A stretch of 64,000 bases of DNA. Source: Patescibacteria group bacterium (GTDB lineage: Bacteria; Patescibacteriota; Patescibacteriia; UBA1558; UBA10009). The translations under genes were made by a program, and so were the position numbers. The stretch covers positions 22,473 to 86,472 of the forward strand of contig JAHITV010000035.1 of the NCBI GenBank assembly GCA_018817315.1, written 5' to 3'. Positions 56,053 to 64,000 of the stretch are shown here, piece by piece (the stretch's first letter is position 1; the number at the start of each line of letters is the position of its first letter). The notes beneath the pieces are model-generated. The model worked only from the letters and a program-made list of their open reading frames with translations, had not been told where the DNA came from and made no database searches.

Positions 56053-59000
56053 ATGAGTAATTTTAAGAAAAATTTAATAATAATTCTAAGTTTAATCTTT
56101 ATTTTCACTAATACAGGTTTGATTTACGCTACCGAAGAAACAACTAATGAGGATAATAATGCCACAGAGGAAACTACCGAAGAAGCAACTGATCAGCCAC
56201 CTGCGGATCAGGGAGAATATGGGAGTTTGGATGAAGGGGGTGATGGCGAACCTTATCAAGCTGAACAAACTTCCTTAAATAATTTTAAAAAAGAAGCCGG
56301 TTTAACAGGTTCTTTAAGAGTAGATAATTTTACTGGTGCAGCTGTTTATCATTACGGATTGGAAGTTCCTGCTGGCAGGAATAATTTTAGTCCTCAAATC
56401 GCTTTATCTTATAACAGTCATGATCAGTCACAGGGCAGTTGGGCTGGGATTGGTTGGTCAATGAATGTTGATTTTATTGGTAGATCAGCTAACTATGGTA
56501 CAGATCGTCTTTATACTGAAGGCGATTTTGTTTTATATTTAAACGGCAAAAGCTATGATTTGGTTTTATTAGATGGCGAGCAGAATTTATACGGTGCTGA
56601 AACGGAAAATGATTATTTAAAGATAAATTATGATGAACAGGAAAAATCATGGACAGTAGTTGATACTTTAGGAACCAAGTATTATTTTGGTTCAGATGTT
56701 GATTCACGTCAGGATGACCCAAATGATGCTGATAAAATTTATAAATGGTTTTTAGAAGAAGCAGTGGACACTAATGATAATTTTTACCGTTTTGAATATT
56801 TGAATGATCAAGAACAACTTTATCCTTCAAAAATTGTTTATACTGGCTATCAAACTGCAGATGGGCCGATGGAAACCCTGTTTACCTATGAAGAAAGGGA
56901 TGATGATTTGATAAGCTATCAGTCACATTTTCCGGTGGTAACTGCTAAACGTTTAAGTGGGGTTGAGATTAAAGTTAATAGTGAAACGAAATATAGATAT
57001 GAATTAGGTTATACTGCCGGTCAAAGTGATCAGCAATCAATGCTGCAATCAATAACTAAAAAAGGATATAAAAGTGGACAAGAATACACTTTGCCGGCAA
57101 CTAACTTTACTTATCAGCAAAGAACTATTGGTTGGACAGATGATATAGCTAATTGGCCAGAAATTCCTTATTTGGGAGTGGAAAATCCAGAAGAGCCAAG
57201 CATCGCGCCGTTAGTTGATTATAATAGTGATTCCTGGACAGATATAGCAAATTTATTCCATACTGGCAGTAATTGGGTAGATAACAATTGGAACTTTCCA
57301 CCTTATCAGGACATTTTTGAGCACAGTTCTATTGGTGATATTAACGGTGATAAATATCCTGATGTTATTACAACCACCACTAATCCACCATATGTAGGAA
57401 GACTTTATTTAAATAATAAAATAGACGGATTTTATTATAGTGGATCATGGAATGAGGATTTGAGTAACATTATTATTGGCCCAAATAATGGGAATAGCGA
57501 ATTTAATTTTGAGCCGATTACCATAGTTGATATTAACGGCGATGGTTTGAATGATTTAATTTACGCTTATGAGTTGGATAATGGACAGCAATATACTCGC
57601 GAGATTTATTTAAATACTGGCAGTGGTTTTGAGCTTGGTTATGGTACTTTCCCGGGAGTCTTAGCTAGTTGTGATAGTAGTCCAAGCCGTTGTCAGACTT
57701 CCAATGTACAAATTGTTGATGTTAACAATGATGGTTTAGTAGATATTTTTAATCCCACTGGCTTTGATCCTAATTATCCAGTAGGAATTTATTTGAATAC
57801 TGGTTCTAGTTGGGAACAAACACCTGATTCTCAATGGATAATTCCTGAAGCAACAAATTGGCATAGTGCATGGATTTGGGGCGGGTCACGTTTAACTGAT
57901 ATTAATGGTGATAGTTTGATTGATATTGTTGTTGCTGCCAGAGCTTATTATTTAGAAGGGGGTAGTTGGGATAATCATGAGTATTTTGCTACTTATTTAA
58001 ATAATGGAGTTGGTTGGATTCAAAACGATAATTGGAATTTACCTACTGCTGTTGGTTATAACCGTTGGGATATTGGCTGCAGACTGTTTGATGTAGATAA
58101 CGATGGTTTAATGGATGTAGTTGTTTCTTATTGTACGAATTATGACTGGACCGGTTGTCATGGAGAAGAAAAGCATGTTTATATGGGTACGCAAATTGAA
58201 GCAAATTTACTTTCAGAAATTGATAATGGCTATGGCGCTGTAACTCTAATTGAATATCAATCATCTGCCAGATATTTTGATGAGCAAGGCGGATTTAAAA
58301 ATCCTAAATTGCCTTTGAGTTTGGCAACAGTCAAGCAAATAACTGTCAGTGATGGTTTGGGCAATGAGGAAGTGACCACTTACGAATATCAAGATGGAGC
58401 GTATTATTATAATTATGCTGATTATACTGAAAATCAGTTTGCTGGATTTGGCCAAGTGACAGCAATTACAGGTGATCAAGTGATTAAGACTTATTATCAT
58501 CAGGGCGGCGGAATTGATAATTATGAATTAGGCGAGTTTGAAGATAACATTTACAAAAAAGGAAAAATTTACCGTGAAGAAGTTTATCAGCAAGATGGGG
58601 AAATACTTCACCTTTTAAGCCAGAAGATCAATACCTGGAAAAACGAAGATTTAGGCGATGGCAGACAATTTATTTATTTGGATTCAAGTGTTAATTATGA
58701 TTTTGAAGAAGGTCAGCAGCAAATGAGCTTTAATAATCCTGAACCAGACCCTGCAGTTTTACAGAATAATTTAACTGATTTACTACAGACCCAGACTTTT
58801 ATTCCGACAAATAAGCCACAGTTAATAAGCAAGTCATTAGACGGTTGGTCTAAAATATATTATTTAGGTAAGAATATGGAAGGACAATATTTATTCAGAT
58901 TAGAAGTTTTTAGTGGCGTGAATAGCAGAGGTTTGGATGAAAATGAAACTGGCGAAGACGAATTTCAAACAAATCAAACAGGCGATGGTTATATTGCTTA

Positions 59001-62000
59001 TGAAACAAATTGGTTGAATCCAAATGAGACTTGGGGTGATGTAGTTGATGCTCAAACAGGAACAAGTATTGATTCCTCATTAATGAGTACATATTTATAT
59101 ATTAAACCGTATGCGCCTTATCAGGGATGGGAGGCTTCTAGGGTGTTTTTGCCTTTTGACACCTCTAATTTACCTGAGGATATTACTATTACAAGGGTAA
59201 ATTTACAGATAACTGTAAATAATGCTCTTAATATCGGAAATGCTTATATAGTAAATTCTAATCAGAATATACCCAATCTTCAAATCGGAGATTATGGCAC
59301 TATTAGTGATCAGAGTGCAGGTTCAATTTATGTAGACGATACCGGGACAAGAGATGTTGATTTAAATGAAATTGGTAGATCTTGGGTCAATACAAATAAT
59401 TGGACTAAATTAGCTTTAAGGTCTTGGTGGGATTTTGAGAATCATGCGCCTTCTAGCCAACAAAATAATAATTATTCATATATATATACAGCAGAGGCGG
59501 ATTCATCAATAAGACCAATATTATCAGTTGAATATTATTATAATAATATAAATCCTGGAATACCAACTGATTTATTAGTTGAAGGACAAATAAATCCAGA
59601 TGATGTAGATGATCAAAATCCGGAATTTTCAGCAATTTTTCATGATGAAAATCCAGAAGATAAAGCTACCACCTACCAAATTCAGATCATTCAAGAAAAT
59701 GGAGATTATAATAACCCTTTTTGGGATAGTGGTCAACAAGCTTTGAGTGTTCCAGTATCTATTGATCAAAGAAGTGAGGATATTGAATATACTGGACCTC
59801 AATTACCTTTGGTAGGTTATAAATATTTTTGGCGCATTAAATTTTGGGATGACGGCGATCCTTTACATTCTGAAGGATTATGGAGTTCTGGCCAAGATTA
59901 TTTTTATATGGATGGCAGTGCGGCTCCAAGCGCTCCAACCGGTTTATTAACCGAAGGCCGAGTTAATCCTTTAGACATTGTTAATCAGAATCCAAGCTTT
60001 ACTGCTTTTTATAATGATCCAAATCCAATTGATTCAGCTAAGTGGTATCAGGTTCAAGTTGATGATAATCTGGATTTTTCCTCACCAATTTGGGACAGCA
60101 ACAAAACTTTGTTAAATAATTTAGTTGATAATGGTGCAAGAAGCGAGGAAATTGTTTATAACGGTAGTCAATTAATTTATAACGGCGTGATTTATTACTG
60201 GCGCATTAAATTTTGGGATAATGAAGAGCCGGATGGCACTGAAGGCGTTTGGAGCGAGACAGCGCAGTTTACCATGTTTGACGACAGCAACTTTTTAACC
60301 AATACAGAAAGTAAGGCAATTAAATATCATTATAATTCCATCAACGGCAATCTCATTCAAGAAGATGATTTGGGCAAAGTCAATGCGGCCAATAACGGCG
60401 TTTATGTTGATATAACCGGCGACGAAAAGGTCAACACTTATGAATATGCGGAAAATACAGAAAAACATATTTTATCAGCAGCCAAACGTAAAATAGTCAC
60501 TGATCAAGTCACTCAAGAAGATACTTTAGTTGATTTGTATTATGATGATTTGCCTTATGGCCAGATTGATAAAGTTAATGTTACTAAGGAAAATTTGGAC
60601 CAAACCCAGGCAGAATACCTTTCTGATTACAATGATTACGGCTTGGTTATCAGCAAAACCGATCCCTTGAATCATCAAGCAATCATCACTTATGATACTT
60701 ACAATTATTATCCTGCAGAAACCACCAATGCTTTAAATCAGACTATTCAGACTGAATATGATCTAACTACCGGCCAAGTCACCAAAACCGAAGATCCTAA
60801 TGGTTTAATTAAAGAAAGAGATTATGATGCTTTTGGCCGTTTAATTGAAGTGAGAAAATCAGATCCTCAAAGTCCTACTGAATTAATTACTTTGGAAACT
60901 TATGAATATCATGATGATGTTTTGCCTTCCTGGATTAAACAGTCAGTCAGAGTTGATGAAAATAACTGGCTGGATACCTACACTTACTTTGACGGTTTAG
61001 CCAGAGAAATCCAAACCTGTTCCCAAAGCAATAGTAATCAATACATCGTGATCAGCAAACAGTATGACAATCAAGGCAGATTATACCGCCAGTCTTTCCC
61101 TTATTTTGCCAGCGGTTCAAGCTATTCCAGTCCTGATTGGAATTCCCCTTCAACACTTCCGTTTACAGAATACACTTATGATTCTTTAGCTAAAGTGTTA
61201 ACAGAAATTGCTAAGGCCGGACAGGATTATTTAACAACTTATGAATACAGCGGCTGGGATATTTTAATTACTGATCCAAATAGCAATCAGAAAAAATTAT
61301 ACCGTGATGCTTCGGGAAATTTGGTTCAGGTTGACGAATATTTAGAAGGTCAGATTTATCCAACTAATTATGAGTATAATTATCAGAATAAATTAACCAG
61401 AATTACTGACAGCCAAGGAAACTGGCGTGAGTTTGAATATGATTCGTTAGGAAGACTTATCAGGCAAACAGAAATGGCCAAGCCTGGAGCAGGTGCTGAT
61501 GAGTGGCATTATGAATATGATGATGCTTCTAATTTGTCGCTTAAAATTGATCCAAATGCCAATGAAATTTATTACACTTATGATGAATTAAACAGAATGC
61601 TTTCCGAGGATTATTTGCAGCAAGGGGGTGTGGAAACAGAATATGTTTATGATCAAGGAGATTACGGCATTGGCAGATTGACTTATATCAATCATCAAAA
61701 CGGCGAAACTGTTTATGAGTATGATCCTTGGGGCAGAATAGCAACAGAGTATAAGGATATTTTAGGCACGGATTTTATAACCAGTTATACTTACACTTGG
61801 CAAAACCAGCCCTTGACTGTTATTTATCCTGATGATTTTACAGTCAGATATGAATATACCAATCAAGGTGACTTAGATAAGCTTTACTGGCAAAAGCCGG
61901 GCGAACAAGAGCAGGAGATTATCAGCACTATAGCTTATTCGCCGTTAAAACAGGTAGCGGGCATTGGTTATGCCAATGGTTTAGAAACAGTCAATACTTA

Positions 62001-63699: not shown

Positions 63700-63711
63700 T
63701 AAGTAAATAAT

Positions 63712-64000
63712 ATGAGTATAAGTGTAAAGTACTATAGCATCATTATACCTATTGAGAAAATATTAAAAATAAAAGGAAAGGATTGGTGGGATAATTATTT
63801 AAAAGAGAATAATAGATCAATAGGTGACGTTTTTTGGTGGGATGAATATCTTTTTCGTGATGGTGGAATGGGTATGGAAGATATAGAATATTTATTGAAA
63901 TTTTGGGAAGAGCAAGGTCTAAAACCTAAGATCATGATTGATAATCAAGAATATTGGAATGATGTATGTGTTGTAGATTCAATTACTGGCCCTACTTTAC
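63712..64000 (+). CDS. putative cognate immunity protein, 3' end beyond window
   Basis: ATG sits 13 nt after the toxin stop. Open frame of at least 96 aa (MSISVKYYSIIIPIEKILKIKGKDWWDNYLKENNRSIGDVFWWDEY...) runs to the window end. The call rests on the canonical RHS toxin-immunity arrangement only. Confidence 0.4.
   Translation, partial: MSISVKYYSIIIPIEKILKIKGKDWWDNYLKENNRSIGDVFWWDEYLFRDGGMGMEDIEYLLKFWEEQGLKPKIMIDNQEYWNDVCVVDSITGPTL

Follow-up and report, generated by a model that had tools for sequence, protein, structure and literature searches.

The TcdB/TcaC class of polymorphic toxins was catalogued in 2012 by Zhang, de Souza, Anantharaman, Iyer & Aravind, together with many toxin and immunity families (PMC3482391); members of the class possess a signal peptide, an SpvB domain, an integrin-like propeller, RHS repeats, a variable toxin and linked immunity proteins, and standalone toxin cassettes serve for recombination. 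The same components were found at the locus described here, an rhs gene within a 64,000-nucleotide stretch (the window) of contig JAHITV010000035.1 from a Patescibacteria group bacterium. The gene is a single open reading frame (ORF) from ATG to TAA, encoding 2548 aa, 2.6 times as long as any other in the window; the identical protein is recorded at NCBI as [quoted passage not shown] and lies on a 97-kb metagenomic contig. Judged by domain content, TcdB/TcaC is the right class for it, and we regard it as probable that the gene specifies a Sec-exported Rhs-family polymorphic toxin of this class and that its immunity protein is encoded alongside it on a Patescibacteria chromosome. The locus differs from the class as catalogued in that Patescibacteria stand outside the phyletic list of PMC3482391, in having toxin and immunity families without a matching model in Pfam, NCBIfam or PADLOC, and in a 540-aa insertion made up of a DNRLRE-like domain and two Ig_Rha78A_N domains.

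Other described systems resemble the locus in part. The Tc cocoons (Photorhabdus TcdB2-TccC3, PDB 4O9X and 6H6E; Yersinia YenB/YenC2) have SpvB, propeller, midN, shell and core in common with it, as well as the PxxxxDxxG aspartyl autoprotease motif; an RHS core with a hypervariable region is common to TcC and the 2548-aa protein, an ADP-ribosyltransferase (ART) tip occurs in TccC3, and natural tcB-tcC (BC) fusions exist (PMC7861908). Unlike the Tc cocoons, the present locus has no TcA nearby, no detected midC and a Sec-type signal peptide; it has an immunity gene and orphan cassettes (there are none at Tc loci) and an extra external decoration. With the antibacterial Rhs/WapA systems it shares the shell, the core autocleavage motif, a polymorphic tip, an immunity gene directly after the toxin gene, and orphan tips that are truncated at the 5' end and have homology to core-encoding DNA; comparators for such orphan arrays are enterobacterial Rhs, Salmonella (PMC3967940), the T6SS (type VI secretion system) Rhs cocoon (PMC8636562) and Gram-positive WapA (PMC12704120). 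It departs from these in having no PAAR/VgrG/T6SS module and no wall-anchor domain, and its N-terminal half is TcB-like (SpvB plus propeller) instead of a plug domain. Within the Candidate Phyla Radiation (CPR), the giant RHS toxin of Saccharibacteria (Starr et al. 2018, PMC6031116) is likewise a secreted RHS/YD protein of ~2500 aa with a neighbouring immunity gene; it carries PA14 and galactose-binding domains, and is likened here by its description only, which leaves its SpvB/propeller status and toxin type unstated.

The scaffold was examined with Pfam and NCBIfam hidden Markov models, by segment-wise BLAST, and with a profile from 25 full-length homologues searched against the PDB; feature coordinates are collected in Table 1. 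There were 97 scaffold homologues, single chains with SpvB, propeller, (midN) and RHS from many phyla, including Omnitrophica, Bacteroidota and one archaeon. SpvB, propeller, midN, shell and core were each conserved in 46-96 of the 97 (SpvB in 79, midN in 56, the RHS shell in 96). The propeller shows repeated DxNGDGxxD motifs, the Asp columns of which are invariant in the family alignment. The best solved relative was the TcdB2-TccC3 fusion cocoon (E ~1e-120), ahead of T6SS Rhs (E 6e-76), TcdB1/YenB over propeller plus midN (E ~1e-71 to 1e-73), TccC2/YenC2 (E 1e-43 to 1e-48) and the teneurins (E ~1e-25); TcdB1/YenB and TccC2/YenC2 cover the two halves of the scaffold, respectively, and the profile aligns with the shells of TccC, T6SS Rhs and teneurins. 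Because these matches are led by the TcdB2-TccC3 cocoon, the label "TcB-TcC-fusion-like" is accurate for the scaffold. A phmmer search of the PDB with the N-terminal 788 aa was too weak to show the TcB relationship.

The N-terminus is signal-peptide-like, of the Sec type: MSNFKKN, with its two lysines, leads into a hydrophobic core (residues 8-26; Kyte-Doolittle mean of 2.2), and no other segment of the protein is strongly hydrophobic; IYA/TEE comes next, then an acidic T/E-rich linker up to residue 92. At the other end of the scaffold, NPVIYNDPTGN at residues 2346-2356 holds the motif P2347xxxxD2352xxG2355, with which the Rhs core closes. Of 25 aligned homologues, 21-22 conserve residues P2347, D2352 and G2355 as well as D2307 upstream, and in most of the 97 homologues NPxxxxDPxG is followed by a tail of 100-370 aa. 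Two catalytic aspartates and the PxxxxDxxG motif have been defined in TccC3 (PMC7861908); by analogy, D2307 and D2352 are a putative aspartyl autoprotease pair matching the catalytic Asp pair of TccC3.

A sequence-only reading of this stretch had described a single 2548-aa ORF with a signal peptide and SpvB/TcB N-terminal domain, an FG-GAP propeller, an RHS/YD shell and core, an autoproteolysis motif NDPTGN, a C-terminal domain unlike the rest, and two paralogous rhamnosidase-type FN3-like domains between propeller and shell, and had proposed model searches as the check. This description held throughout: SpvB, FG-GAP, TcdB_toxin_midN, Ig_Rha78A_N, RHS_repeat and Rhs core were all matched. Its claim that the protein combines every element of TcB and TcC went too far in one respect; SpvB, propeller, midN, RHS and core are there, and TcdB_toxin_midC (PF12255) was not detected in the protein by Pfam at E <= 0.1.

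The 193-aa tail after G2355 matched none of the 96 other scaffold homologues, whose tips are unrelated; being unique among the 97, the tip is thus polymorphic. Among 1.84 billion cluster representatives, only nine relatives of the tail came up in an exhaustive HMMER search; these were without exception Rhs tips or short orphan/mini-Rhs proteins, with the similarity limited to the last ~108 residues. No homologue was retrieved when the tip was used in a word-indexed search, and scans of the toxin tips and immunity proteins with Pfam, NCBIfam and PADLOC gave nothing meaningful, with no Pfam ART family matched. A phmmer search of the PDB with the tip gave a lone match to CO-dehydrogenase, which was judged spurious. 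The 85 residues between core and toxin domain form a pre-toxin linker, the type of which is found again in P0100 and P0105; tip relatives have frankly hydrophobic helices at this position, and the linker could perhaps serve membrane entry.

AlphaFold2 prediction of the tip on its family alignment gave a predicted local distance difference test (pLDDT) of 94.2 and a predicted template-modelling score (pTM) of 0.86. The fold was matched by two methods, one of them Foldseek (probability 0.99 for KptA and 0.98 for TreX); the match scores were 8.5 for KptA/Tpt1, 7.8 for both diphtheria toxin and the RhsP2 C-terminal toxin (7RT7), 7.5 for Exotoxin A, 6.5 for TreX, 5.1 for TreTu and 4.9 for the TccC3 hypervariable region. 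Known antibacterial Rhs ART tips (RhsP2, TreX, TreTu) are thus among the fold matches. The family alignment displays LY[R/H/K]G, aromatic-x-T-[T/P]-[D/N]-x-S-E-A, an invariant Tyr, a Pro, and an acidic residue in G-E-E; the LY[R/H/K]G, aromatic-x-T-[T/P]-[D/N] and Tyr elements, and E2532 as the acidic residue, fall in the model at the strands where ART catalytic residues are expected (H/R on strand 1, Y or S-T on strand 2, E on strand 5). When the toxin-family sequence profile was searched against the PDB, its top match was KptA, as in the fold search, aligned over LYHG...ILKEGL...HVSTDKIEAL. We concluded from the predicted structure that the tip is a minimal ART domain with a split beta-sheet fold; the candidate catalytic residues are Y2461-R2462-G2463, Y2483/T2485-T2486-D2487, Y2494 and E2532. 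With ~108 residues it is set apart from Tpt1/KptA, diphtheria toxin/ExoA, RhsP2-CT (7RT7) and TreX/TreTu. RhsP2 ADP-ribosylates RNA 2'-OH groups (PMC12340436), and since the tip lies near Tpt1/KptA and RhsP2, a nucleic-acid target is a reasonable guess.

The ORF following the toxin gene begins 12 nt past the stop codon. The 131-aa protein matched no Pfam, NCBIfam or PADLOC model, and an indexed search gave six other relatives. In a second Patescibacteria genome (GCA_040960375.1; locus L002) an ortholog, P0104 (2546 aa), is 38% identical to the 2548-aa protein and colinear with it, insertion included. The tip of P0104 belongs to the same ART family, and 4 nt after its gene lies that of a 146-aa protein 45% identical to the 131-aa candidate (E 2e-42). 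The immunity homologue P0109 comes directly after a short ORF for an H-type variant of the same ART domain in L007-L009, which are three more metagenomic contigs. Toxin and immunity families therefore co-occur at three independent loci, namely L001 (the rhs gene and its 10-kb flanks; adding 46052 to an L001 position gives the window position), the syntenic L002, and L007-L009. Because the two families travel together in independent contexts, identification of the 131-aa protein as the cognate immunity protein of the ART toxin is supported, and it would be expected to neutralise the toxin. Another immunity homologue, P0113, has no adjoining toxin on its 1.9-kb contig and adds nothing.

We examined if a TcA partner, a pentameric translocator with VRP1, Neuraminidase and TcA_TcB_BD domains, is encoded nearby. 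None was found over ~74 kb, made up of the window (56 kb of it upstream of the gene) and 10 kb on the downstream side of the gene; the largest other ORFs there, of 978 and 920 aa, have domains unrelated to TcA. None was found in the 4-kb flanks of ortholog P0104, upstream of ortholog P0002 (whose gene meets the contig end), or up to 10 kb away from the closer homologue P0014. MidC was recorded in distant homologues only, in none of the top 69; one of those bearing it is P0072 of Fulvivirga ulvae (CP089981.1; L006 10001-27581), in which a 3111-aa TcA comes after two tandem BC-fusion genes (2526 and 2567 aa), each with TcdB_toxin_midC. The distant midC branch of the superfamily is thus linked to TcA, and the branch of the window protein is not. 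These data bear upon the possibility that the protein serves as BC subunit in a true Tc (ABC) toxin, its TcA encoded elsewhere in the genome and its tip destined for eukaryotic cells. A survey of Tc loci found no immunity gene in any (PMC7861908), in line with eukaryotic targets, whereas the locus here has an immunity gene and orphan cassettes, as well as a Sec-type signal peptide; together with the missing TcA, near this gene and near the close homologues examined, and the confinement of midC to TcA-linked distant homologues, this renders the Tc-subunit explanation most unlikely. A stand-alone Rhs-like toxin is favoured over a Tc toxin because of the immunity gene, the orphan cassettes, the absence of midC and the absence of TcA in ~74 kb, and because a Sec signal peptide is also present. 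On all these points the results agree with the sequence-only reading, which had taken the short downstream ORF for the immunity gene, had seen no TcA in the vicinity, and had proposed a stand-alone Rhs-like toxin in a CPR-like organism, the latter fitting the NCBI label; extension along the contig, which it had suggested, recovered the full 131-aa immunity gene and showed where the window had cut it.

The gene order past the window end was read from L001. The first orphan (orphan 1) lies after the 131-aa ORF, and its frame is open and homologous upstream of any start codon; it has in common with the main rhs gene a 252-nt DNA repeat of 78% identity. Its tip is a distant tenth member of the ART family (24% identity), so that this orphan and the main gene carry distantly related toxins of one family. 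The downstream layout is that of a textbook Rhs locus with displaced orphan tips, as described elsewhere (PMC3967940; PMC3482391). Farther downstream is a mini-Rhs gene, the core tail of which matches TIGR03696 (E 2e-15). L002 has a mini-Rhs pair at the same position (13485-14414 and 14420-14806; 53% identity to the L001 pair), and further mini-Rhs genes are P0099, P0101 and L007 998-1945. The mini-Rhs format consists of its own signal peptide, no more of the core than its last ~90 residues with PxxxxDPxG, and a toxin tip, followed by a small immunity-like ORF, with no shell; in other contexts this format carries the ART toxin family.

L001, L002 and L004 have HD, Metallophos, Inositol_P, (tRNAs) and ssb in common upstream of the rhs gene. 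Downstream, L001 and L002 (L004 stops inside its rhs gene) have in common GIY-YIG, the mini-Rhs, its immunity-like ORF and the LTD/PKD gene, and the interval from the main immunity gene to GIY-YIG differs between the genomes. Because the flanks are syntenic and this interval differs, the rhs locus is a stable part of the chromosome in this Patescibacteria lineage, and the cassette region within it is variable. As to the victim, two readings may be drawn from the sequence: a competitor strain, or the host of the epibiont. The latter would make the protein a weapon for parasitic exploitation, aimed at the host bacterium and not at kin, with immunity as self-protection during synthesis. In its favour, Patescibacteria dwell on the surfaces of host cells (PMC13622651), glycans of the host wall could be docking sites for the decoration, and the conserved synteny of the locus in diverged Patescibacteria (38% identity) points to a function at the core of their lifestyle; against this, arrays of orphan tips and immunity genes with a polymorphic tip are the classical signature of kin or strain competition (PMC3967940; PMC3482391), and immunity homologues were seen only on small metagenomic contigs. 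We consider a host target possible, and on these grounds doubtful.

Residues 881-1420 represent a clean 540-aa insertion, as in homologues without it RHS comes directly after midN. Its first ~130 residues are poorly defined; the beta-sandwich follows, and then two Ig_Rha78A_N domains that are 45% identical to each other and both end in YxWRIKFWD. PF25788 matched two stretches from residue 1171 (E 7e-16, 58.8 bits), exceeding the gathering cut-off of 27.4. Only three Patescibacteria relatives (P0002, P0003 and P0104) have the whole insertion between midN and RHS; the sandwich-plus-Ig module occurs elsewhere in the chain in P0008, P0009 and P0017, the sandwich alone in two copies in P0029, and in other homologues Laminin_G_3, PKD or DUF6443 stands in its place. 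Because the module recurs at differing positions among homologues, the insertion behaves as a movable external decoration, which most likely binds glycans on the surface of a neighbouring cell. Foldseek matches of the insertion to the insulin receptor and complement were discarded, as they say only that there is a string of beta-sandwich domains. The large beta-sandwich and Ig-like decoration would also suit a teneurin-like surface adhesin or scaffold, which attaches the epibiont to its host by propeller and lectin-like domains and never delivers its tip; teneurins and bacterial teneurin-like proteins match the shell, and a conserved LTD/PKD surface protein is encoded nearby. We give this adhesin very little chance, since the protease motif is intact and conserved, the tip has a confidently predicted ART fold with conserved candidate catalytic residues, the immunity gene co-varies with the toxin family, and orphan toxin/immunity cassettes make sense only if the tip is a weapon.

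For a stand-alone Rhs-like toxin the following sequence of events may be proposed. The signal peptide would carry the protein over the single membrane, and SpvB, propeller, midN and RHS would form a closed shell similar to that of TcB-TcC. The D2307/D2352 protease would cut after PxxxxDPxG, at G2355, leaving the 193-aa tip inside the shell. The 540-aa decoration would dock to glycans on the surface of a neighbour cell, and the tip would be freed into that cell by a TcA-independent route. There the 108-aa ART domain would use NAD+ to modify an essential conserved target, possibly nucleic acid, while the 131-aa protein would neutralise the toxin in the producer and its kin; the orphan rhs tips with their immunity genes may be a recombination reservoir for switching of warheads.

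Several points weigh against this proposal. Support for each of its steps is computational, and the closed shell is drawn from homology. In Tc toxins the propeller is the TcA-docking gate; here the propeller is conserved without TcA, which raises the question of what opens the shell. The absence of TcA holds for this contig stretch only. The ART call rests on the fold, as the toxin-family sequence profile reached only E 0.8 against the PDB, which is not significant, and the first position of the ART motif varies between R, H and K. As for docking, the glycan-binding role is taken from family names only; the NF033679 match to the sandwich (E 4.2e-6, 26.9 bits, profile positions 18-163 of 164) lies below the curated cut-off of 34, and the AlphaFold2 prediction of the insertion was poor (pLDDT 62), with moderate confidence for the sandwich only.

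An extended reading, which we think unlikely, would have the propeller-gated TcB-TcC-type cocoon of an ultra-small monoderm epibiont deliver its cargo by itself and independently of TcA. It joins four parts: lectin-like decorations may dock to the envelope of the host bacterium; a trigger other than TcA may open the propeller gate; the hydrophobic/Gly-rich linker may carry the new minimal ART, possibly one aimed at nucleic acid, across the host membrane; and the mini-Rhs may be a second format, cocoon-free or trans-loaded.

To our knowledge, Patescibacteria/CPR epibionts are without T6SS and type VII secretion machinery, and their means of attacking neighbours or exploiting them are largely unknown. 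A conserved, syntenic Rhs weapon with putative Sec export and interchangeable warheads provides a concrete and testable candidate for such attack, and the locus sharpens the question of how SpvB-propeller-RHS cocoons deliver cargo without TcA. It also yields a compact 108-residue ART toxin family with a matching immunity family, both missing from current domain libraries. New here are the lineage-conserved locus, an ART toxin family that is rare and had no annotation, together with its immunity family, the decoration of DNRLRE-like and Ig_Rha78A_N domains, and the recurrent signal-peptide mini-Rhs format. The kind of system (PMC3482391), BC fusions (PMC7861908) and a giant RHS toxin with immunity gene in Saccharibacteria (PMC6031116) are already known; novelty had thus been overrated when the architecture was first read from the sequence. 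The Ig_Rha78A_N insertion noted in that reading is real. The known framework of polymorphic toxin systems is unchanged, and the findings, useful for CPR biology, should not surprise polymorphic-toxin specialists.

Table 1. Features of the rhs locus, in window numbering; positions beyond 64000 lie on the contig past the window end.
Feature	Residues	Position	Strand	Remarks
Rhs-family polymorphic toxin gene		56053..63699	+	2548 aa; Pfam, NCBIfam and PDB profile match
Sec-type signal peptide (putative)	1-26	56053..56130	+	KK, hydrophobic core, IYA/TEE; read from sequence
SpvB/TcaC N-terminal domain	93-360	56329..57132	+	PF03534 match 93-257, E 5e-12
FG-GAP/integrin-like beta-propeller	361-663	57133..58041	+	Pfam FG-GAP, FG-GAP_3: 426-566 and further stretches, E 5e-11
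TcdB_toxin_midN region	664-880	58042..58692	+	PF12256 match 664-817, E 1.5e-18
Insertion, part A	881-1165	58693..59547	+	C-terminal half is DNRLRE-like beta-sandwich
DNRLRE-like beta-sandwich	1013-1159	59089-59529	+	NCBIfam NF033679
Two tandem Ig_Rha78A_N domains	1166-1290 and 1291-1420	59548..60312	+	Pfam PF25788
RHS/YD-repeat shell	1421-2255	60313..62817	+	RHS_repeat PF05593, four stretches, E 1.5e-15; TIGR01643
Rhs-associated core	2256-2355	62818..63117	+	TIGR03696 Rhs_assc_core, E 8.6e-15
Pre-toxin linker	2356-2440	63118..63372	+	85 residues; Met/Gly-rich end (MATNMMMGAMGGGV)
Toxin domain	2441-2548	63373..63696	+	Predicted minimal ART fold, ~108 aa
Cognate immunity gene (supported)		63712..64000, cut by window end	+	Complete on contig: 131 aa, equivalent to window 63712-64107
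Orphan 1				After 131-aa ORF; 350 aa, 5'-truncated; 38% identical to main residues 2194-2547
Orphan 1 immunity gene				137-141-aa ORF; overlaps orphan 1 end
Fragment 2, orphan rhs tip				79 aa, 5'-truncated; 79% identical to main residues 2237-2299
GIY-YIG gene				After G+C-rich island
Mini-Rhs		68929-69810 (L001 22877-23758)		293 aa; signal peptide, last ~90 Rhs-core residues, different tip
Mini-Rhs immunity-like ORF		69815-70201 (L001 23763-24149)		128 aa
LTD/PKD surface protein gene				920 aa; downstream of mini-Rhs pair

Within the orphan array, just past the truncated rhs fragment, sits a G+C-rich island (L001 ~19900-22200, equivalent to window 65950-68250) with a G+C content of 0.44-0.52 compared to 0.30-0.35 for its flanks; its minus strand carries genes for enoyl-CoA hydratase and Zn-alcohol dehydrogenase, and the syntenic L002 locus is without it. 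This may represent either a recent horizontal acquisition or an assembly chimera.

The window as a whole has ~33% G+C; outside the rhs locus it contains dnaA, a class A penicillin-binding protein (978 aa, the second-largest ORF), glycogen-metabolism genes and an array of T4SS-pilin-like paralogues, content consistent with a CPR chromosome. The dnaA gene lies at 31614-32972 (-) and its surroundings, and the cumulative GC skew turns upward from ~32-36 kb; because of these two features the window probably spans the replication origin region. The array, at 5638-8807 and possibly reaching ~10450, comes after a solute-binding protein gene and is a tandem of at least six small paralogous genes (six called) matching PF18895 (T4SS_pilin), which may have a bearing on how this organism makes contact with other cells. 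Upstream of the rhs gene, a 250-aa metallo-beta-lactamase-fold protein encoded at 52389-53141 (+), with recorded matches to PF23023 (Anti-Pycsar_Apyc1) and Lactamase_B, is kept in the synteny block, and is probably a housekeeping nuclease or phosphodiesterase of that fold rather than an anti-defence protein. Two tRNA genes at 54746-54954 (+) lie between a PF1765-like gene and ssb and precede the rhs gene by ~1.1 kb; L002 has a gap in the corresponding position, which suggests that they are conserved.

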